Source: a virus. From it: 64,000 nt of DNA. This document shows, one piece after another, positions 17,244 to 51,357 of this stretch. A program made the position numbers and the translations under genes. The DNA lies in IMG/VR virus record IMGVR_UViG_3300046674_000395, positions 23,566 to 87,565 of that record; one strand, written 5' to 3'. Numbering within the stretch: position 1 is the stretch's first letter; the number at the start of each line of letters is the position of its first letter. The notes below the pieces were generated by a model. The model had not been told where the DNA came from, did no database searches, and worked only from the letters and a program-made list of their open reading frames with translations.

Positions 17244-17603
17244 CTATCGGCGACTGCCGGCCTTAGCGCGGTCGCCGCGGCGGAGCCGGTCGAGTGCCTG
17301 CTGCGAGGTGGGGGCGGCGTACTGGCGGCCGGGGGTGGCGATGTCGCGCATCCCGGCGGGCGGCTGCTCGTAGACGGTGCCGCTCTGGCCGAGGAGTCCG
17401 GAGGCGGACAGGTGGCCGGTCATCCACTCGCCGGTGAGCCGGGACTGCCGGTCGAAGGTGTGGGCGCTGTAGGTCTGGTCGTCTTCGTAGGGGGCGAGGT
17501 TGGTCGCCATGTTGTTGATCGTGTAGACGGTCTTGCCTTTGCTGAGCCAGCGGTTGAGGTCTTTGGCGCCCCTGCGGGTGGGCTGCCAGCTGCGTCCGGC
17601 CAT
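17244..17603 (-). CDS. hypothetical protein (Spd-like position downstream of traB)
   Basis: 119-aa ORF, first gene after the traB-proximal repeat region. Confidence 0.58.
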   Translation of the reverse strand: MAGRSWQPTRRGAKDLNRWLSKGKTVYTINNMATNLAPYEDDQTYSAHTFDRQSRLTGEWMTGHLSASGLLGQSGTVYEQPPAGMRDIATPGRQYAAPTSQQALDRLRRGDRAKAGSRR

Positions 17604-17668
17604 GAGTGATCTCCTGCTTCCGTCGTCTTGGGTTTGCCCTGGTTTGGGCGGTTGGATGGATGGTCGAC

Positions 17669-17817
17669 GCCCGGTCGGCGCCTAGTTTGCGGTGGTATGA
17701 GACCCGGTCGAGGATGCGGCACCCCGGTCGCCGGGCCGCCGCGATCCGTAGTGCGACCGGGTTACATACCGGCCCATAGCGGGCCGGTACCACCCTCCGA
17801 CCAGGCGGCGACCGGGT
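17669..17817. repeat. clt-like cluster of five 8-bp repeats (consensus ACCCGGTC / GACCGGGT) downstream of traB
   Basis: gcccggtc 17669-17676, acccggtc 17702-17709, ccccggtc 17722-17729 in one orientation; gaccgggt 17755-17762 and 17810-17817 inverted. Confidence 0.65.
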
Positions 17818-17825
17818 TGTCTGTC

Positions 17826-19889
17826 CTACTTGGCGGCAGCTTCGGCGAGCTGCTCGCGGGTGTAGCCGTTCGGGTTGGCCAGCCCGTCGAGCGGGCCGAG
17901 CTTGCGGGTGCCGCCGGCACCGGCGTCGCGAAGGCGGGCCTGCAACTCGGGCTCGGTCACGCCCTGGTAGCGGTCGGGCCGGTAGGCGATCAGCAGTTCC
18001 AGGAGCCGCTTGGTGCGGGCCCGGTCGACTCCGTTGGCGTCGAGAACCGTGAGGGCGTCGGCCAGCAGCTCCTTGTGCACCGACGCCGGTTCCGTCTTGC
18101 CGTACTCGGCGGCGAACCCCGTCAGAGTCCCGGCTTCGATGCGCAGTTGGCGGCCACGCAGGCAGATGTCTCGGAACTCGGGGATCGTCATGAAGTCGGT
18201 CTTCAGGGTGACGTGCCCCTCCTCGCCGCCCTGGTCGAGTACGACGACGCCCTTCTGCGAGTCGAGGAGCATGTGGGGTGCGGCTCCGGCGGCGACGGCG
18301 TCGTCGCCGAGGACCATCCGGGAGCTGGCTGCGCCCTTGACTCGGAAGCAGGCGGTCTTGCGGCACACGTTGCGCAGCATGGTCGGCACGCTGCTCGCGT
18401 CCGGGCGCTGGGTGATGAAGAGGCCCATGCCGCCTGCGTAACGGCTGACGCGGACGAACCGGGCCATGGTCTCGACGAGGACTTCCTTGCCGTTGCGGCC
18501 CTTGTCCCTGCTCTCGGAATCGTCATCCGTCTTGATCTTCATCATGGCGGCGGCGTCCAGGAGTTCCTGCAGCTCGTCGACGATCAGCAGGGTCAGGCCG
18601 CGCTTCCACAGCTTCGCCAGTTCGGGGGTGAGCTTGCCCTCCGGGCACTGCTCCGGGTGCTCCTCGGACAGCTGCTCCAGCTTCTCGCCGATCTCCTGCA
18701 TGTCGGCGATCAGCTCGTTCAGCAGGTCCAGGAAGGCGAGGATCTTCGCAGGAGTGTTGCCAGCCACGTAGGACTGGGCGAACTGCTTGGTCGCCGCCCA
18801 GTCCGGGCCGGCCTTCCCGGTGGCCACGTGGACGGTCATGTACGGGTCGAGGGCGGCGGTCGCGGCGACGAGGCGGGCCAGGAACGACTTGCCGTAGTCG
18901 GGCAGGCCGCCCAGCAGCAGGGAGCACCACACCAGTTCCAGGACGTGCCGGGTTCCACGGGGGTCAGTACCCAGAGGGACGCCGCCCTGCCAGAAGTCCC
19001 ACTGCTCCAGGGTGAGCAGCGGCGAGGGCACCTTCTTGGAGCCGTAGGGGTTGGCCTCGTTGGCCACCCACAGCACGAACCGTCCCTCGTGCCCTTCCTC
19101 GGAGGAGTCGGCGTGCATCTCGACCTGGGACTTCTTCACCTTCAGCGCCGAGGCCAGCTCTTCGGCCTTGGAGATGGCGGACGACGCCTTCATCCCACCG
19201 GGCAGTTCCGCGGTGGCGGTCCAGCCGGGGCCAGCGGGCCGGATGATGCCGACCAGGTGGGTCTCGTCGCGCTGTGCCTCGCTGATGATCCCAGCCTTGA
19301 CGAGCGCGGTGATCAGGTCGGCCTCGCCGCGGATCTGGGCTGCGTCCCGCGGGGCCGTGCCGAACAAGTCGCTGCCCCCGCCGGCTCCTGCGATACCGGC
19401 CCGGTGGCGGCCGTGGAAGGCGCCGAGACCCCAGGTGCCGAGAACGGCGAGAGCGTCCACCCACAGGCTGCCGGTAACGACTCCGAAGCCGACTCCCCCG
19501 GTGACCGCTCCAGCCACCCCGGCGGTCTTGCCCGTGTAGGCGAGGCGGTGCCGCTTGTACTCGTCGCGAAGGTCGGCGCGCCGCTTCTTGGCCGCGCCCT
19601 CCGCATGCATGTCGCCTGCCGCATCACGGACGGCCTCGCCCGCTGTTGCGATCAGCTGCGGGTAGTCGTCGCGGTAGCGGTCGACCCAGCGGCGGCCGAG
19701 CTGCCGGTAGCCGCGGGCGGTGTGCGGCAGCAGGGCGAGCTGGGCGATGCGGTTGGTGCGCTCAGCAATCGTCCGCACCGACGGGGCCGGCTTGCGGTCG
19801 GCCGCCTCGTCCTTGAAGACGGGCGCCTCGGGAACGTCTTGGACGAGGGTCAGCAGGACACGCTCGTCGGTCAGCGGGGTGGCCATCAT
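17826..19889 (-). CDS. traB: FtsK/SpoIIIE-family conjugative dsDNA translocase (TraB-like)
   Basis: ATG 19889 overlaps the DUF2637 stop; 687 aa. Walker A GGLPDYGKS, Walker B LLIVDELQ; N-terminal TM region GAVTGGVGFGVVTGSLWVDALAVLGTWGLGAF. The first ~295 aa of track ORF 17826-20774 are off-gene R-rich sequence. Confidence 0.9.
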   Translation of the reverse strand: MMATPLTDERVLLTLVQDVPEAPVFKDEAADRKPAPSVRTIAERTNRIAQLALLPHTARGYRQLGRRWVDRYRDDYPQLIATAGEAVRDAAGDMHAEGAAKKRRADLRDEYKRHRLAYTGKTAGVAGAVTGGVGFGVVTGSLWVDALAVLGTWGLGAFHGRHRAGIAGAGGGSDLFGTAPRDAAQIRGEADLITALVKAGIISEAQRDETHLVGIIRPAGPGWTATAELPGGMKASSAISKAEELASALKVKKSQVEMHADSSEEGHEGRFVLWVANEANPYGSKKVPSPLLTLEQWDFWQGGVPLGTDPRGTRHVLELVWCSLLLGGLPDYGKSFLARLVAATAALDPYMTVHVATGKAGPDWAATKQFAQSYVAGNTPAKILAFLDLLNELIADMQEIGEKLEQLSEEHPEQCPEGKLTPELAKLWKRGLTLLIVDELQELLDAAAMMKIKTDDDSESRDKGRNGKEVLVETMARFVRVSRYAGGMGLFITQRPDASSVPTMLRNVCRKTACFRVKGAASSRMVLGDDAVAAGAAPHMLLDSQKGVVVLDQGGEEGHVTLKTDFMTIPEFRDICLRGRQLRIEAGTLTGFAAEYGKTEPASVHKELLADALTVLDANGVDRARTKRLLELLIAYRPDRYQGVTEPELQARLRDAGAGGTRKLGPLDGLANPNGYTREQLAEAAAK

Positions 19890-23515: not shown

Positions 23516-24307
23516 CTACACGTCAATCACGTACCGGAAGGCGTGCCGGTCACACGGGACGATCGAGTCTTGAACCTCCAGCACGTCACCGGCCGAGTCG
23601 TAGGCGGTGCGGATCACGCGCGCCACCGGAACGCCTTCCGGGATGTCGAGTTGCTCGACCTCATGGGGATACGGCATCCGGACATCGAGGTCTTCGATGA
23701 ACTGGGTGATGCGCCGGCCAATGGGTCCGTCGGGGTCTTCAATGATGGCGTTGGCCCCACCCTTGATCAGGCGAGGTTCGGCAAGACGGGTTCCTGCCGC
23801 GATACTGGCGTCGTAGTAGGCGTCGCACAGCAGCATCGGCGTGTCCGCCTCCCCGTCGGCACTCTTCATGACGAACCGAAGGCGTCGGACGATCATCGGC
23901 GCTCCAGGCGCGACGCGGAATCGCTCGGCGATCGCCTCCGGAGCCGGGGTCTCGACGACCTCGCGGATCTCTTGCTGCGCCTTCTGCCCCTGTGCGCGAG
24001 CTTCTGCGTTGTAGTTCGACTCCCCGGTCGCCCGGCGGGCGCGGTAGATGCTGCCCGTCTGGCGCAGGCTGACGTTGGGGCGCTCGCGAACGGTGGAGTG
24101 CTTGCCCTGACTGCTGGTGATCAACCCCTCCGCCCGCAGCACGGCAACACCCTTGCGCACGGTGGCCCGGCTGGCGCCGAAGCGCTGTTCGAGCTGCTCC
24201 TGCGAAGGGATCTTGTCTCCGGGGGCCAGATCGCCCCGGATGATCTCGGCGCGGAGCTCGTCGGCGATCTGCTTGAAGGGCGGCACCTTGGATGGGTTGG
24301 TTGACAT
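23516..24307 (-). CDS. GntR/HutC-family transcriptional regulator (wHTH plus UTRA-like domain), Kor-like
   Basis: Start MSTNPSKVPPFKQIADELRAEIIRGDLAPGDKIPSQEQLEQRFGASRATVRKGVAVLRAEGLI at 24307; ~170-aa C-terminal effector domain. Confidence 0.9.
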   Translation of the reverse strand: MSTNPSKVPPFKQIADELRAEIIRGDLAPGDKIPSQEQLEQRFGASRATVRKGVAVLRAEGLITSSQGKHSTVRERPNVSLRQTGSIYRARRATGESNYNAEARAQGQKAQQEIREVVETPAPEAIAERFRVAPGAPMIVRRLRFVMKSADGEADTPMLLCDAYYDASIAAGTRLAEPRLIKGGANAIIEDPDGPIGRRITQFIEDLDVRMPYPHEVEQLDIPEGVPVARVIRTAYDSAGDVLEVQDSIVPCDRHAFRYVIDV

Positions 24308-24321
24308 CGCACTCCTGACTA

Positions 24322-24358
24322 CTTGGATACCCATTGGAAGCGTAGCGGGATATCCAAG
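24322..24358. promoter_or_regulatory. two operator half-palindromes directly upstream of the GntR gene
   Basis: cttggatacccattgg 24322-24337 and ggatatccaag 24348-24358. Further copies at 24405-24418 and 24457-24470 lie inside the PPOX 3' end. Confidence 0.6.
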
Positions 24359-24366
24359 TTGTGCGT

Positions 24367-24786
24367 CTAGCTTGTGCGCGCCACCCACCCTGACCAGCGA
24401 GTTACTTGGATCTCGATGACCGGCCCGGCCGGTCGCCGGTCGCGATATTGGGCGTACTTGGATAGGAGAGCCTCTACAAGTTCGCCGGCATCCTCGTTCT
24501 CCAGCACGCGCGCCCGCCCGTCAGCACGCACCCACCAAAGCTGCTCCCAGTCCTCGTCGAAATGATCGACAAGGAGCGTGACAGCTGGGTTCTCTCGAAT
24601 GTTCCGAAGCCGCTTCAGGTTGCTGTGCCGCTTCGGCTTGTGATCCACCGCGATCGCAACGCGCTCCCCCACAACCGCGAACGTGGCGGGGACCAAGTGC
24701 GGGTGACCTGCGGCATCGGCAGTCGAGAGGCGCAGAACTCTAGCTCCCTCGAAGCGTTGACGCTGCTCGCCTGCCGACATCTCCAT
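24367..24786 (-). CDS. PPOX-class (pyridoxamine 5'-phosphate oxidase-like) probable F420-dependent enzyme
   Basis: HLVPATFAVVGERVAIAVDHKPKRHSNLKRLRNIRENPAVTLLVDHFDEDWEQLWWVRADGRARVL. Confidence 0.78.
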   Translation of the reverse strand: MEMSAGEQRQRFEGARVLRLSTADAAGHPHLVPATFAVVGERVAIAVDHKPKRHSNLKRLRNIRENPAVTLLVDHFDEDWEQLWWVRADGRARVLENEDAGELVEALLSKYAQYRDRRPAGPVIEIQVTRWSGWVARTS

Positions 24787-25763: not shown

Positions 25764-27302
25764 GGCACCCCCTGACGCAGCGCCAGGGGGTGCCGAATGA
25801 GGAGATTTAAGGTGAAGAGGTTCCAGCCGCAGCCCGGTTTCGTGGTGCAGGCGTACCGCTTCGCCATGGACCCCAACGCCACCCAAGAGCAGGCACTGCG
25901 CTCGCACTGTGGTGCGGCCCGCGCTGCCTACAACTGGGCTGTCGGCTGGGTGACCGCCTCCTGGTGGCAGCGGAAGGCCGAGGAGTCTTACGGCATCCCC
26001 GAGGCTGAACTGACGCCTTGGCGGCCGTGGTCGCTGCCGTCTCTAAGAAAGGCGTTCAACGAGGCCAAGCACGCCGACCCGCGATTCGCAGACTGGTGGG
26101 CGGAAAACTCCAAGGAGGCGTACAGCACCGGTCTTACAAACGCTGCCGCCGCCTTCGACAACTACAGCAAGTCGAAGCGTGGAAAGCGGCAGGGCCGAAA
26201 GGTAGGTTCGCCGCGTTTCAAGTCGAAGCGGAAAGCACGCCTGTCCTGCCGGTTCACCACCGGCACCATCCGCGTCGATGTGGATGGCCGCCACGTCACG
26301 CTTCCCCGGCTTGGCACGGTCCGTGTGCACGAGCGCGCGGACAACCTCCGTGACCGGCTGGCGGCCGGTACTGCGCGGATCCTGTCCGCGACCGTGCGGC
26401 ACGAGCGCGGACGCTGGTTCGTCTCGTTCCAGGCCGAGGTCAAGCGGGACCTCGAACGCGTGGCGCGGCCGGACGTGGCGGTCGGTATCGACCTGGGGGT
26501 GAAGACCCTCGCGGTCATGGCCGACAGCACCGGCGAGATCCGCACCATCGCGAATCCCGGGCACTACGACCGCGCACGCAAGCAGCTGCGCCGCGCCTCC
26601 CGCGTCGTCTCCCGCCGCCAGGGCCCCGACCGCAGGACCGGGCAGAAGCCGTCGAAACGGTGGGAGAAGGCCAACGCCGCCCGCAACAAGGTGCATCACC
26701 GGGTGGCGAACCTCCGCGGGGACGCCCTGCACAAGCTCACCACAAGCGTGGCAGCCGAGTACGGCACAGTCGTGGTCGAAGACCTCAACGTCGCCGGGAT
26801 GCTCCGCAACCGGCGTCTCGCGCGCAGGATCGCCGACGCCGGGTTCGGGGAGATCCGCCGCCAGCTCGACTACAAGATGCGCCAGCGCCACGCCACCCGC
26901 ACCGTCGCGGCGGACCGCTGGTACCCCTCCTCGAAAACCTGTTCCGGGTGCGGCGCAGTGAAAGCCAAGCTGCTGCTGCACATCCGGACCTACCAATGCG
27001 ACGCCTGCAACCTGGTCATCGACCGGGACGACAACGCCGCACTCAACCTCGCCGCACTCGCGGCAGTCGCAGTAACTGGTACCGGAGTGGCCGGAGACCA
27101 GGACACCGCCCCGGCGGTGTCGAAGCCTCGTGGAGCCGACCAGAAGTCCCGCACCACCCGCCCCCGCCGCAAGGCTGGGACGGGGCGGGCAGGTGGCGCA
27201 ACCCTGCCGCACCAGCGGCAGGCGGAAACGAGAGACCGCACTCAAGCCGAAGCACTCACGCTTTGGTGATGTGACGGACCTTCCGGGCCGAAATGCCCGG
27301 AA
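25764..27302 (+). mobile_element. IS200/IS605-family tnpB-only element (no tnpA); bounds approximate
   Basis: Perfect 11-bp-stem hairpin ggcaccccctg/cagggggtgcc at 25764-25794 just before tnpB; 8-bp-stem hairpin ttccgggc/gcccggaa at 27281-27302 just after its stop. Confidence 0.7.
25797..27269 (+). CDS. tnpB: TnpB (IS605 OrfB-family RNA-guided RuvC nuclease)
   Basis: RuvC-I VGIDLGVKTLAV, RuvC-II VVVEDLNVAGM, zinc finger CSGCG...CDACN, RuvC-III DRDDNAALNL. Likely true start is GTG 25812 behind AGGAG. Confidence 0.9.
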   Translation: MRRFKVKRFQPQPGFVVQAYRFAMDPNATQEQALRSHCGAARAAYNWAVGWVTASWWQRKAEESYGIPEAELTPWRPWSLPSLRKAFNEAKHADPRFADWWAENSKEAYSTGLTNAAAAFDNYSKSKRGKRQGRKVGSPRFKSKRKARLSCRFTTGTIRVDVDGRHVTLPRLGTVRVHERADNLRDRLAAGTARILSATVRHERGRWFVSFQAEVKRDLERVARPDVAVGIDLGVKTLAVMADSTGEIRTIANPGHYDRARKQLRRASRVVSRRQGPDRRTGQKPSKRWEKANAARNKVHHRVANLRGDALHKLTTSVAAEYGTVVVEDLNVAGMLRNRRLARRIADAGFGEIRRQLDYKMRQRHATRTVAADRWYPSSKTCSGCGAVKAKLLLHIRTYQCDACNLVIDRDDNAALNLAALAAVAVTGTGVAGDQDTAPAVSKPRGADQKSRTTRPRRKAGTGRAGGATLPHQRQAETRDRTQAEALTLW

Positions 27303-31812: not shown

Positions 31813-32658
31813 TCAGGCCTCCGTGCCGGTCGCTGCCGTGCACCAGGGGCATCCGGTGACGGGCGTGTGGTGGTGGGTGTCGTGGATGGCTTTGACGTGG
31901 ATGCAGTGCTCGACCGGCGGGGCGGGCTGGGGCTCGGCGGCGGGCTGCTCGGCGTCACAGCCGGGGTCGCAGAACGCGTGCTCGCCCAGCGCGTGATACC
32001 GGATCTGGGCGTGCGCGTCGCAGAGTTCGTCCGCGGCCTCGTTGCAGGGGCGGGCGCTGCACGACGTCGACTGCTGCACCTCGTCGGCCATGCGACGCAG
32101 TCCGATCGCCACATCCCGGACGGCCTCGTGTTGGATGCGGGCCGCCTCGTCGAGATCCCCGCGCTCGCGGTCGTAAGCCTCGTTCTGGTCGGCGAGCGTG
32201 GCGTACCGGTCGGCGGCTTTGCGGAGGGCGGCGGCTTCGATCGCAGCCGGGTCGACGGCGACGGCCTGTGTCTCGTCGGCTGCACCACCCGGGCCGGACA
32301 CGGCGTCGGCCGCGGGTCGCCCGTCGAGCAGGTCGAGGATGTCGCGCAGTGCCTCGCGGTAGCCGCTGCCGAACTCGTTGCGGGCCGTGACGACGTCGCT
32401 CGTCACCCACTCGCGGATACGGCCGAGACGCTCCACGGCGGCACGGTCGGTGGGTGCGGACGCCGGGACCGGGACGGCGGCGGGCGCAGCCTGCGCGCGG
32501 CGCAGTCCCGCGTCCCACCGCTCACGGAGCGCGTCGATCGCCCTGTGCACGGCGGGCGTCAGCGTCCCGCCCGCGTCGGTGATGGCGTGCTGGACGGCGT
32601 ACAGCTCCCGCATGTCGTCGACGGGGCGGTTGGCCTGTGGGTTGGTGGTGTCGGGCAT
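31813..32658 (-). CDS. hypothetical protein with C-terminal Cys/His motif GCPWCTAA
   Basis: ATG 32658; 281 aa; the C-terminus CIHVKAIHDTHHHTPVTGCPWCTAATG is shared with 55268-55648. Confidence 0.58.
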   Translation of the reverse strand: MPDTTNPQANRPVDDMRELYAVQHAITDAGGTLTPAVHRAIDALRERWDAGLRRAQAAPAAVPVPASAPTDRAAVERLGRIREWVTSDVVTARNEFGSGYREALRDILDLLDGRPAADAVSGPGGAADETQAVAVDPAAIEAAALRKAADRYATLADQNEAYDRERGDLDEAARIQHEAVRDVAIGLRRMADEVQQSTSCSARPCNEAADELCDAHAQIRYHALGEHAFCDPGCDAEQPAAEPQPAPPVEHCIHVKAIHDTHHHTPVTGCPWCTAATGTEA

Positions 32659-32737
32659 GCGGACTCCAAGTCGTGGTGGCGGATGATGGGCGGGCCGGCC
32701 GCCGCCTGCTACCGACAGGCGGCGGCCGTGCACGGGT

Positions 32738-33250
32738 TCACCGGGACACGGGCGGGCAGTCGGCCTCCCAGTGCCAGCCCATGACCGGCGACCGGCGTAC
32801 CCCGTGCTCCCCGCACTCGGCGTCCGGGACGATGCCCCCGCACGGGTAGACGACCGGGCACACGCACGACCGGGACACAGCCGTGTAGGGCAGCGCATGC
32901 CGCACGTCCCGCGGGGCCGGCCGGCCTGTCGTCAGCACGCGGTGCGCCCGGTCGGCGACCTCGCCCGGCGTGGCCCCGCCCAGCAGGTGAAGGTCGGGCA
33001 CGGTGACGCCGTCGACGGACAGCCCCCACTGGACGGCGCCCTCGTCCTCGCCGTCGCCGGTCCAGCCGATGACGAGGAACGGCTGGTCGTCGGCGTTGAG
33101 GATTTGGTGCGCGGTGTGGTTGAGGTTGATGACGATGGCGGATTCGTGGGCGTCGCGGATGGTCCAGCCGTGCGCTTCGATGGCGTCGGCGACGGATCGC
33201 ACCCAGGTGTCGGGCATTTCGTCGGTGATGGTGGTGGGCTGGTCGGTCAT
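32738..33250 (-). CDS. hypothetical protein
   Basis: ATG 33250 (MTDQPTTITDEMPDTW...), 170 aa. Confidence 0.52.
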   Translation of the reverse strand: MTDQPTTITDEMPDTWVRSVADAIEAHGWTIRDAHESAIVINLNHTAHQILNADDQPFLVIGWTGDGEDEGAVQWGLSVDGVTVPDLHLLGGATPGEVADRAHRVLTTGRPAPRDVRHALPYTAVSRSCVCPVVYPCGGIVPDAECGEHGVRRSPVMGWHWEADCPPVSR

Positions 33251-35883: not shown

Positions 35884-36602
35884 GCGGCTTCACCTCGGCG
35901 GCGGTCCGGGCCCTTGAACACGACGCGCTGGCACATCTCGATGAGCCGGCTGGTGACGCGGTCGCCGAGGCGGTCGCTGATCTCCTTCGGTACCAGGTTG
36001 GAGGTGATCAGCGTCGGCAGGTGGTTCTCGTAGCGCCAGTTGATGAGCCGGAAGTTGATCTCTTCGGTGAACTCAGTGGGCTTGCGTTCGGCGCCGAGGT
36101 CGTCGAGGAGAAGGACGGAGGCGTTGCGGTAGCGGCGGAACTCGGCTTCGGAGTCGATGCCGTGGCGGGGGCGGAGCGCGGCGTACATGTCGGCCGCGGT
36201 GGTGACGACCCAGGTGGCGGCGACGCCGGTAATGGCGAGTTCACGGATGGCACCGTAGGCCTGGTGGGTCTTGCCGGTGCCGGTCGGACCGAGGAGCAGC
36301 AGGGAGCGTCCGCGGGTGACGGAGGCGACGGGGGCGCCGCGCTCGGCCTGGGTTTCGCGGCCTTCGGCAGTGAGCTCCTGGAGCCAGGTCTGGATCTCGG
36401 GGCTGTCGGTAATGGCGCTGCGGTAGTGGAACGGGATGATCTTGTCGGCGGCGACGATGGAGTAGCGGGCGACGTTGGCGACGCTGTACGGGTCGGCGTC
36501 ACCGGAGTTCAGCCAGTCGAGGCTGATGCCGCGGACGGCAAGCAGCTGCTCGAGGTGGAAGCGCTTCGGGTTGATGGGCGGGATCCACTGCATGGTGATC
36601 AC
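35880..36602 (-). CDS. DnaC/IstB-like AAA+ helicase loader
   Basis: Walker A GPTGTGKTH, Walker B LLLDDLGAE, TLITSN. Confidence 0.87.
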   Translation of the reverse strand: MITMQWIPPINPKRFHLEQLLAVRGISLDWLNSGDADPYSVANVARYSIVAADKIIPFHYRSAITDSPEIQTWLQELTAEGRETQAERGAPVASVTRGRSLLLLGPTGTGKTHQAYGAIRELAITGVAATWVVTTAADMYAALRPRHGIDSEAEFRRYRNASVLLLDDLGAERKPTEFTEEINFRLINWRYENHLPTLITSNLVPKEISDRLGDRVTSRLIEMCQRVVFKGPDRRRGEAA

Positions 36603-37501
36603 CAGTCCTGGTGGTAGTCGGAATCGTCTTCGGGATTGCGGTGCGGGCCGTCGGAGCCGGCCGTCGGCGCGGAGTCGAGCGGGTCGTCATAGCTGCCGTT
36701 GTTCAGCCAGGTCGCGGAGTACGGCGTGTAGCGGTCGGCCTTGCCGCCGAGGTGCTGGGCGTAGGCCTTGGCCGCTTTGACGATCAGGTCCGGGTCGGCG
36801 CCTCGACCGAGAGCAGCCCGCCAAGCGGTCTTGGTCTTCTCCGGCTGCATGGGCCGCGGGTAGAGGAGCCAGAAGTCGCCGAACGCTTTCCAGGCGTAGT
36901 CGCGCTCTTCGTCTCCGGCCGCTGCTCGAGCCGAGTCGCGGGCGCCATAAGAGTCTTTTGGTTCAGCTCTTGGTTCAGTCTTTTGGTTTGGGTGACGTGG
37001 GCGTCGCCCCTCCTGCGACGTGGGCGTCACCCCATCAGCGACGTCGGCGTCACCGGTGACGTCCACGTCACCCCTGACGTCCACGTCACCCGTCAAATCG
37101 GACGGTGCATCTTCTGAGCTGGGCTTCTTCTTGCCACCGCGCCGACGGGATGACGCCAGCGCCACCCGTGACGTCCGCGTCACCTCATCCGAGCCGGCGC
37201 GCCCGCCCGGAACGACCCTCTCGAAGGCCAGGTCGTAGACCTCCGGGCGCTTCCCCTCGGGGAGGTGGGCGGCCTTGGACTGGTCGCCGAGGCGGATGAA
37301 GCCGAGCTCGCGGAGCTGCTTGAGGTCACGCTGGACGGAGCGCTCGGCCTTGCAGGCGTAGGCGGCCAGCCGGGCGACCGACGGGTACGCCCCGCGGCCC
37401 TTCTTGTCGGCGTGACGGGCCAGCCCGCTGAGGGTGGCGACGAGCTGCGCGGGCATCGGCGGAGCCTTTTCGAGTGCCCAGTCCATGGCCTCAGTGCTCA
37501 C
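36599..37501 (-). CDS. phage-type replication initiator/replisome organiser (N-terminal wHTH)
   Basis: PSVARLAAYACKAERSVQRDLKQLRELGFI; C-terminal FWLLYPRP...TWLNNGSYDD; iteron array inside the gene. Confidence 0.78.
   Translation of the reverse strand: MSTEAMDWALEKAPPMPAQLVATLSGLARHADKKGRGAYPSVARLAAYACKAERSVQRDLKQLRELGFIRLGDQSKAAHLPEGKRPEVYDLAFERVVPGGRAGSDEVTRTSRVALASSRRRGGKKKPSSEDAPSDLTGDVDVRGDVDVTGDADVADGVTPTSQEGRRPRHPNQKTEPRAEPKDSYGARDSARAAAGDEERDYAWKAFGDFWLLYPRPMQPEKTKTAWRAALGRGADPDLIVKAAKAYAQHLGGKADRYTPYSATWLNNGSYDDPLDSAPTAGSDGPHRNPEDDSDYHQDW
36953..37184. repeat. candidate origin of replication: six 16-bp iterons plus an adjacent T-rich triple repeat, inside the initiator gene
   Basis: YGACGTSSRCGTCRCC at 36993, 37016, 37039, 37057, 37075 and 37169 (two identical copies, tgacgtccacgtcacc); tcttttggtt-type repeats at 36953-36991. 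Confidence 0.75.
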
Positions 37502-49968: not shown

Positions 49969-51357
49969 GTGGCGGGGTACATCGAAGACCGCTGGATGAC
50001 GAGGAAAGCGGATCCAGCGACCGGCAAGAAGCGTCGGACCGCACGCTGGGGGCAGGGGAAGCGTTGGCGGGTCGCCGGCGTCCCTGGCGTGCGGGACCGG
50101 TCCTTCACCAACCTCAAGGGCCCTGACGGGGCTGAGAAGTGGCTAGCCGACTCGCAGACGGATACGAGCCGCGGCCACTTCTACGATCCACGCGACGGCA
50201 ACATCACGCTGCGGGAGTACGTCGAGCAGACGTGGTGGCCGACGCTGCGGAAGGCGCCCGGCACCAAGCAGTCGATGAAGCCTCGGGTCTTCAATCACAT
50301 CCTTCCCCACGTGGGGCATCTGTCGCTGAACCGGATCGGGCACGACGAGATCCGGGTCTGGCTCACCCGGGTCGAGCAGGACATCGACGTGAACACGGTG
50401 CGCACGACGTGGCGCCATTTCTCGACGATCATGCAGGCGGCGCACAAGGCCAAGAGGATTGCCGAGAACCCGTTCAGGGATGAGGACTTGTCGGCGCCGG
50501 CGGCGCCTCCGTCCAAGGCGAAGGCGTGGCCCAGGGAGACAGCTGCTGCGGTGCGGGCCGAGTTGGGTCCCCGGTACGGGATCCTTGTGGACCTCGCTAC
50601 CGGGGCCGGGCTGCGGCAGGGGGAGTGCTTCGGCTTCTCGCCGGACGACATCGACGGCGACGAGATCCATGTGACCCGTCAGATCGTGCGGATCAATAGC
50701 CGTCTGGCGTTCGCGCCTCCGAAGCGCGGCAAGCTCCGCGACGCACCCTGCCCTCCGGAACTGGCCCGCGCCGTCAAGGAGTACGCGAATGTCTTCCCGA
50801 CGGTCGAGGTGACGCTGCCCTGGGTGGACCCGGACCGGCCGAACCTGGAGTGGGACAAGCGTCCCCTGCGGACTGTACGTCTCCTTGTGACCACACCCAG
50901 GACCGGCGGAGTCAGCGGCGGCGCACTGAACCGGGCGACGTGGGACGACAAGGCGTGGAAGCCGGCGCTCGCCCGTGCGGGCGTCATCCCGGAGCCCGAG
51001 GTCGAGTACGTGCAGGCGAACGGGAAGAAGCCGTGGCGCCGGGTGGCGTGGCGGATGCCGCGGGAGGACGGCTTCCACGTCACGCGGCATACGTTCGCTA
51101 GCATCGTGCTGTCGGAGGGTGAGACAATCACTCAGCTGGCTGCGTGGCTCGGTCACTCGGATCCGGCGTTCACGCTGAGGACTTACGTGCACTTCATGCC
51201 GAAGTCCGGGAAGCGGGCGCTGGCTGCGCTCGGCTCGTGGATGTCCCCAGGTGGGGGCGGGACCCGAGCCGCTGAGGCCGATCAGGCTGTTGAGATCTCT
51301 CCCGGTTCTGATTCTCCCCAGATTCTCCCCAGCGAAGATCTGGATCAAGGAATCTAG
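49969..51357 (+). CDS. int: tyrosine integrase (phage/AICE type)
   Basis: GTG start; N-terminal YIEDRW...DPATGKKR arm-binding type; catalytic GLRQGE (R), HVTRHTFAS (HxxR), LGHSDPAFTLRTYVH (H...Y). Track ORF 50143-52107 is an antisense artefact. Confidence 0.93.
   Translation: MAGYIEDRWMTRKADPATGKKRRTARWGQGKRWRVAGVPGVRDRSFTNLKGPDGAEKWLADSQTDTSRGHFYDPRDGNITLREYVEQTWWPTLRKAPGTKQSMKPRVFNHILPHVGHLSLNRIGHDEIRVWLTRVEQDIDVNTVRTTWRHFSTIMQAAHKAKRIAENPFRDEDLSAPAAPPSKAKAWPRETAAAVRAELGPRYGILVDLATGAGLRQGECFGFSPDDIDGDEIHVTRQIVRINSRLAFAPPKRGKLRDAPCPPELARAVKEYANVFPTVEVTLPWVDPDRPNLEWDKRPLRTVRLLVTTPRTGGVSGGALNRATWDDKAWKPALARAGVIPEPEVEYVQANGKKPWRRVAWRMPREDGFHVTRHTFASIVLSEGETITQLAAWLGHSDPAFTLRTYVHFMPKSGKRALAALGSWMSPGGGGTRAAEADQAVEISPGSDSPQILPSEDLDQGI

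Follow-up and report, generated by a model that had tools for sequence, protein, structure and literature searches.

The repeats that fill the non-coding gap directly behind a traB-like gene are probably the cis-acting, clt-type recognition site of the TraB-like DNA pump which that gene encodes. This assignment was deduced from sequence comparison and structure prediction, chiefly from the position of the array, from its conservation and layout in related loci, and from the joint variation of its repeat word and the predicted DNA-reading tail of the pump. The window referred to throughout is the whole 64,000-nt stretch of DNA that was analysed; its G+C content was measured at 68.4%, not the 72% assumed in the preliminary description. 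The gene is called traB below for convenience.

The array and the gene it follows

The gap measures 222 bp instead of the 220 bp first given. It had rightly been placed downstream of traB, as it begins right after the stop codon, and since the genes lie on the minus strand, downstream here means lower coordinates. The features of the locus, in window coordinates, are as follows.

17244..17603, minus strand: next gene, 119 aa, with an AGGAG ribosome-binding site
17604..17825: non-coding gap with the repeat array, 222 bp, 67.6% G+C, without a coding-type ORF
17646..17666, plus strand: arm 2, two degenerate slots with a GGTCG core, reading CGACCATCC and CAACCGCCC on the traB strand
17670..17677, plus strand: arm 2, exact CCCGGTCG
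17703..17710, plus strand: arm 2, exact CCCGGTCG
17723..17730, plus strand: arm 2 (inverted relative to traB), exact CCCGGTCG
17754..17761, minus strand: arm 1, exact CCCGGTCG, the best-conserved slot
17765..17773, minus strand: arm 1, variant slot GCCGGTATG, overlapping the hairpin at 17767-17789
17767-17789: hairpin TACCGGCCC-GCTAT-GGGCCGGTA, 9-bp stem, window-specific
17798..17805, minus strand: arm 1, degenerate CCTGGTCG, 11 bp from the first copy, matrix score 10.8
17809..17816, minus strand: arm 1 (traB sense), exact CCCGGTCG, 9 nt past the traB stop
17826..19889, minus strand: gene of the TraB-like FtsK-family dsDNA translocase, 687 aa
17829..18086, minus strand: part coding for the winged helix, residues 602-687 (AlphaFold2)
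17859-17954, minus strand: predicted recognition helix a3 and wing, residues 646-677, a 32-residue segment
19886..21157, minus strand: gene of a coiled-coil and membrane protein, 423 aa, overlapping the traB start

Five exact copies of CCCGGTCG and about five degenerate ones span 170 bp of the gap. Read on the traB strand, the exact copies lie at +9 and +64 past the stop codon and then, inverted, at +95, +115 and +148, while the degenerate slots lie at +20 (CCTGGTCG), +52 (GCCGGTATG), +159 (CGACCATCC) and +171 (CAACCGCCC). The preliminary description had listed five octamers, GCCCGGTC at 17669, ACCCGGTC at 17702, CCCCGGTC at 17722 and GACCGGGT at 17755 and 17810, and had given three of them one orientation and two the other. 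All five were found at these positions, and the coordinates bear out the orientations; positions 17701-17708 likewise read GACCCGGT, as reported. The repeats are therefore real, but their unit had to be redefined, as only three copies are exact ACCCGGTC and the invariant 8-mer is CCCGGTCG, which is shifted by one base.

A count of the octamer had been suggested as a check on enrichment, and the outcome depended on the unit. The originally proposed ACCCGGTC is close to expectation window-wide (6 found, 4.98 expected), whereas CCCGGTCG is locally clustered: a 148-bp stretch holds five of its occurrences, of which the window has 19 and the 87.4-kb element 25. The array is the top 8-mer cluster of the window, and of 40 third-order Markov simulations only one produced five clustered copies of any 8-mer. 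With a weight matrix built from other loci only, the gap was also the densest 200-bp stretch of the whole element, with 7 matrix hits against a mean of 0.57.

Elsewhere in the window, three more copies of CCCGGTCG (two on the minus strand, one on the plus strand) lie within 104 bp at 32851-32954. They are located at the 5' end of and just upstream of a minus-strand ORF without a Pfam hit (31816-32898), and the chance of such a triple was roughly estimated at ~1% for the element.

The translation of traB contains a Walker A motif (GLPDYGKS) and a Walker B motif (LLIVDE), and two N-terminal membrane helices are predicted at residues ~94-159. The AlphaFold2 model of the protein (mean pLDDT 82.8) begins with hydrophobic helices, continues with a motor domain and ends in an H-E-H-H-wing-H domain, which showed the same order of elements when modelled alone (pLDDT 86.9). 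The best Foldseek matches were the FtsK motor domains 6t8o, 2iut and 2ius (E ~1e-13), and the conjugative coupling protein TcpA was matched as well. In PHROGs the protein was assigned to phrog_1358 (FtsK/SpoIIIE-like, E 9e-20), and tblastn found FtsK/SpoIIIE-domain proteins on Streptomyces plasmids that are 25-34% identical to it. The architecture of a Tra protein, namely N-terminal membrane helices, an FtsK-type motor with Walker A and B motifs and a C-terminal winged helix, was thus found in these predictions, with the winged-helix topology of the tail being weakly supported by fold search.

Family profiles gave a weaker signal. The score against NCBIfam NF041214 (plasmid_TraB) was 31.9 bits with a cut-off of 800, the Pfam search returned no family at E <= 0.01, FtsK_SpoIIIE included, and the phage collection searched contained no match; among solved structures, sequence search gave at best TcpA at E ~0.9. 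A more distant relative (L038) just reaches the FtsK_SpoIIIE and DUF3631 cut-offs, and the tail of the window protein matches the C-terminal part of Pfam DUF3631 at E 0.0012, below the cut-off. Given the fold and the sub-cut-off scores, the protein is therefore TraB-like in architecture but cannot be shown to belong to the curated TraB family. The original designation as traB holds to this extent. In most records the family is annotated as "hypothetical protein".

The 423-aa gene that overlaps the start of traB travels with it and lies where an SpdB2-like partner would be expected. Because the 423-aa protein had no Pfam, NCBIfam or PHROG match, an SpdB2-like role may be proposed for it from position only. 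On the other side of the array, the 119-aa gene has homologues in most relatives, and in some the gene directly behind the array is a different one.

Conservation, layout and motif classes

Relatives' loci were collected from species genomes (15), from IMG/VR (9) and from 401 Streptomyces genomes (23). The gap aligned position by position in 21 distinct loci with TraB proteins 54-100% identical, and it is the positional homologue of the gaps in these loci. The motif columns of the 21 loci were 90-100% conserved while the spacers diverged, and motif slots at equal offsets with drifting spacers were observed in 23 distinct relatives having the CCCGGTC-type motif. Judged from these alignments, the repeats, rather than the spacers, are under constraint.

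In the relatives the forward slots are found at +9, +20, +31, +53, +64 and +85 and the inverted slots at +96, +116, +149, ~+160 and ~+172. The slot at 17809..17816 is kept in most relatives, and that at 17798..17805, which is degenerate in the window, is CCCGGTC in most of them. A (C)CCGGTATG column is conserved at the variant slot 17765..17773, as are CGACCACCC and ACC(G/A)CCC columns at the degenerate arm-2 slots 17646..17666. The window array is partly decayed, with 5 exact copies compared to 7-8 in some relatives.

The start of the array is fixed at 3-16 nt past the traB stop in all four motif classes described below, even where the next gene is different. The copies nearest the traB stop have the orientation of traB and those beyond them are inverted, which gives two convergent arms; this too holds in all four classes, and 201 pairs were concordant with the forward-before-inverted order while 4 were discordant. 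The centre-to-centre distances were 10, 11, 20, 21, 31, 33, 44 or 55 bp. These values are multiples of ~10.7 bp (10.5-11), with a Rayleigh R of ~0.9.

Four motif classes were found across the family, each accompanied by a different version of a3 and wing in the predicted winged helix.

Class A, word CCCGGTC: segment LQARLR..AGAGxTRKLG..NPNGY; the window and most relatives
Class B, word CTGCTCG: segment LKAMLRKAGAGSPVPLG..NPRGF and a related form; L013/L026 and L032
Class C, word CCCGGAC(A): segment ..ALRAAGVVRPDKV.. or ..LRAAGVVRPDKV..; L034-L036
Class D, word TCTACC/GGTAGA(G): segment ..ELEAAGVKRTSKQV.. or ..LEAAGVKRTSKQV..; L038-L047, at 32-38% identity

The comparison of individual loci with the window protein at equal divergence proved most informative. 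L013, whose word is CTGCTCG, is 66% identical in the motor and 50% identical in a3 and wing, whereas L008-L015, with the word CCCGGTC kept, are 61-64% identical in the motor and 75-81% identical in a3 and wing. In these comparisons the identity of the a3 and wing segment follows the repeat motif and not the divergence of the motor, a co-variation drawn from three independent motif switches. Since the motif changes together with the DNA-reading tail of the pump, the array is probably the pump's docking site. Linked genes, for example that of the upstream membrane protein, were swapped with the same cassette, and another linked DNA-binding protein may be the reader of the array.

A second conserved element was observed within the inverted arm, at window positions 17691-17699. 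Its class A sequence is CA(T/A)ACC(A/G)CCGCAAA; in L026, L032 and L038-L047 (classes B and D) the slot holds CTGACCTGC(G/A)A despite the other repeat words of these loci. The element may act as a promoter element or be bound by another protein.

Known clt loci and the phage context

Experimentally defined clt loci are available for few plasmids, and clt together with the specificity of the cognate TraB is known for pSVH1, pJV1, pIJ101 and pWTY27; for pSAM2, the model integrated element, no clt has been described (PMC9513070). The clt-like form ascribed to the array in the preliminary description was upheld, as position after the translocase stop, unit length and copy number match those of experimentally defined clt (PMC3583192, PMC4447253). 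Known clt loci are needed in cis for TraB-dependent transfer, are bound specifically by the cognate Tra protein, and hold several copies of a 7-9 bp word, often along with inverted repeats, in ~50-200 bp; those of pSVH1 and pWTY27, unlike that of pIJ101, are located at or just past the 3' end of the tra gene. In copy number, word length, extent and location the array agrees with this description.

The clt of pWTY27 resembles the array in that 7-8 bp repeats start at or just past the stop of the gene for a membrane-anchored FtsK-like Tra protein of ~690 aa and, with direct and inverted copies, extend over ~160-175 bp (PMC3583192). It differs in its word, TGACACC, in its Tra family, which is remotely related to the protein described here (the 31.9 bits to NF041214), and in its setting, a theta-type plasmid rather than a phage. 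As a positive control, the same k-mer procedure was applied to 12 bona fide NCBIfam plasmid_TraB loci from Streptomyces genomes (L051-L062), and 6-9 TGACACC copies starting at the traB stop codon were obtained. These are the DC1 repeats, which are footprint-protected by pWTY27 TraA and needed for transfer (PMC3583192), and the procedure therefore finds a proven clt. As L054 and L056 carry GTCACAC instead of TGACACC, specificity variants also exist in the classical TraB family. By eye, the copies in the 12 pWTY27-type loci are mostly direct, with 1-2 inverted copies mid-array, and display neither two convergent arms nor an obvious 10.5-bp phasing.

The hexameric FtsK-like TraB of pSVH1 (Streptomyces venezuelae) is described as reading 8-bp words through a3 of its C-terminal winged helix (PMC3583192, citing Vogelmann 2011; PMC5133688). 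Its recognition sequence was given in the preliminary description as GACCCGGA, which agrees with a review (PMC5133688). The word of the array shares a CCCGG core with GACCCGGA, and CCCGGAC(A) of L034-L036 overlaps it in six bases. The comparison covered word and reader domain. The protein here is not a recognisable orthologue of pSVH1 TraB, and the likeness of the words does not imply shared specificity because the relatives use quite different words. For S. coelicolor, 25 chromosomal clt-like clusters have been reported (PMC5133688), while no comparable clusters of the CCCGGTC motif were found in three host genomes. Triple CCCGGTC clusters in these three genomes were considered and rejected, being nearly all tandem repeats of longer units and mostly coding-like.

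The clt of pJV1 comprises nine 9-bp direct repeats and two inverted pairs, and that of pIJ101 three 5-bp repeats and an essential inverted repeat (PMC3583192). Both are needed in cis and share with the array short repeats and imperfect inverted repeats near transfer genes, but their words differ and both belong to rolling-circle plasmids. The pIJ101 clt lies near korB and not directly behind a tra gene, as the array does. KOPS and SRS are 8-bp polar words as well, read by the gamma domain of FtsK and SpoIIIE, which is likewise a winged helix at the C-terminus of such a motor. In KOPS and SRS, as in the array, polarity changes sign at one point. They are scattered chromosome-wide and converge at dif, whereas the words here are packed into 170 bp. 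An assignment of the tail to the FtsK gamma domain, the KOPS reader, was also rejected, as a fold search with the isolated tail gave no specific match but weak, generic winged-helix matches (E 0.08-1). What is new in the present array is the unannotated protein family, the convergent phased architecture, the four natural specificity classes and the residence in temperate phages.

The source IMG/VR record is 87,565 bp long and has an exact 127-bp terminal overlap (1-127 = 87439-87565). The overlap points to a circular assembly, typical of k = 127, and the record's "direct terminal repeat" label may stem from assembly and not from the virion DNA. Genes were recognised for tape measure protein, HK97-type major head protein, head protease and endolysin, and further for tyrosine integrase, DnaB, DnaC-like loader, Dcm and RecE-like nuclease. 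By this gene content, the element is a temperate siphovirus and not a plasmid or an AICE. L004 is a complete Streptomyces chromosome in which a traB of 80% identity and its array reside in a prophage with conserved gene order; the terminase and portal of this prophage are only 27-40% identical to those of the element. Two further genomes have capsid homologues at 12-21 kb from traB, and in three more none was detected.

The transfer module has the order regulator, membrane protein, traB, repeats and small genes, as in conjugative plasmids. Two further genes of the element are needed below.

23516-24388, minus strand: GntR/UTRA regulator gene
36602-37501, minus strand: HTH_36 initiator-like gene, beside the DnaC-like and DnaB genes (34.5-37.5 kb)

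Around the start of the GntR gene, at 24321-24463, lie four copies of ACTTGGAT/ATCCAAGT, which are distinct from CCCGGTCG and are probably the operators of the GntR/UTRA regulator. The HTH_36 gene contains 4-6 copies of CGTCACC(C) at 36990-37091, which probably mark a replication origin within the gene. The transfer module and the early genes are separated by a 490-aa ORF (25797-27269) with a C-terminal CxxC...CxxC zinc-ribbon, which looks like a TnpB of the IS605/IS200 family.

Plasmid-phages of Streptomyces with a tra gene are represented by pZL12 and its relative pSLE1 (PMC4487206, PMC3583192). Like the element, they are circular, ~86-90 kb in size, and combine phage particle genes with a conjugation tra gene, and two circular Streptomyces plasmids of 88-92 kb have a major capsid protein 84% identical to the one of the element. 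Of these two, the 88-kb plasmid NZ_CP108705.1 (L050) was examined; it is pZL12/pSLE1-like and carries ParA/ParB and PhlD, as is described for that group. Its Tra protein is FtsK-like, with 718 aa and the Walker A motif GAQGSGKT, and has no BLAST similarity to the TraB-like protein here. While NZ_CP108705.1 is a plasmid with ParA/ParB, the element encodes a tyrosine integrase, and the related elements lie in chromosomes as prophages.

Alternative functions and the proposed mechanism

It is conceivable, though unlikely, that TraB binds the array for segregation within the mycelium and not for intercellular transfer, the pump carrying the phage genome, excised or in replication, through the cross-walls of vegetative hyphae or into spore compartments. 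A temperate phage, the host of the array, can already pass between cells by itself. Short phased repeats in two arms are also seen in plasmid centromeres such as parC of R1, and the array may be compared to these as well as to SpoIIIE/FtsK with their polar chromosome words. Furthermore, pSVH1 TraB also acts in spreading inside the recipient mycelium (PMC4447253). However, no ParA or ParM-type partner adjoins the array, and the layout of the module equals that of conjugative plasmids. Since plasmids use the same TraB for mycelial spreading and for intercellular transfer, segregation would be a shift of emphasis more than a different mechanism.

The repeats could instead be operators for another DNA-binding protein of the module, for instance a small-gene regulator, with the link to traB being positional; this was judged quite improbable. 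The array does fill the intergenic region up to ~45 nt before the next start codon, the second conserved element lies in its inverted arm, and Streptomyces plasmid regulators bind repeated boxes. Among loci that share a motif, however, the next gene varies and the spacing from the traB stop does not, the motif class tracks the TraB reader domain, and at least 10 sites over 170 bp would be unusual. As the GntR gene of the module is flanked by different palindromes of its own (the four ACTTGGAT/ATCCAAGT copies), the GntR regulator was rejected as the protein acting on the array.

A structure at the transcript level, i.e., a traB terminator, a processing hairpin or a cruciform in which the inverted arms matter and the words do not, is very unlikely. 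The RNA of the gap on the traB strand folds at -124.5 kcal/mol (z = -5.4 relative to shuffles), and this strong fold arises because forward and inverted motif copies pair; the 9-bp-stem hairpin at 17767-17789 is part of the same case. In the alignment this hairpin was not conserved among the relatives. RNAalifold on 11 relatives gave an unfavourable covariation term of +1.42, and changes on both sides were found in only 3 of 35 pairs, so that the paired columns are invariant and not compensating. There is no T-rich tail on the traB strand, and two terminator-like matches are on the plus strand, inside the next gene.

Finally, attP arm sites, replication iterons and cos/pac, each of which also has short repeats in both orientations, can be set aside as highly improbable, since the array adjoins no rep, int or terminase gene: the integrase gene is 32 kb off (49969-51354) and the array is intact in integrated chromosomal copies (complete chromosome L004), where attP would be split; iterons are represented by the separate CGTCACC cluster inside the initiator gene; and the packaging genes (terminase) are ~17 kb away, while the array stays with traB in prophages with structural genes only 27-50% identical.

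For the preferred reading, a recognition site of the TraB-like pump, the following mechanism is proposed. Excision of the prophage by the tyrosine integrase would yield a circle. Membrane-anchored TraB hexamers would read the (C)CCGGTCG words by means of a3 and wing of the winged helix and assemble on the dsDNA at the array, and the FtsK-type motor would then pump the element as dsDNA into a neighbouring hyphal compartment or a recipient. With ~10.5-11 bp phasing, the sites would face the same side of the helix, the polarity of one arm being opposite to that of the other. This phased two-arm layout may let several reader domains, or two opposed hexamers, dock next to each other, a speculation suggested by the loop-extrusion scheme of transfer by TraB (PMC11571958).

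A more far-reaching scenario, which we put forward only tentatively and consider doubtful as a whole, is that a temperate Streptomyces siphovirus lineage carries a working TraB-clt pair and spreads virion-free, as naked dsDNA, via hyphal contacts. The convergent phased arms would load two opposed TraB hexamers, and the uncut circle would be threaded as a loop with both arms being pumped simultaneously. If this is true, the motif switches and the matching changes in helix and wing would constitute the first recognition code for such DNA pumps.

For the unannotated family of TraB-like pumps, a candidate site is thereby available whose position is fixed and whose phased two-arm layout is conserved, and the four natural specificity classes, each paired with a version of the 32-residue reader segment, offer material for swap experiments. 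As the module lies inside complete temperate phage genomes, a working site would mean that these phages have a second, capsid-free route of spread. Such a route would bear on the movement of prophage and chromosomal DNA in Streptomyces populations.
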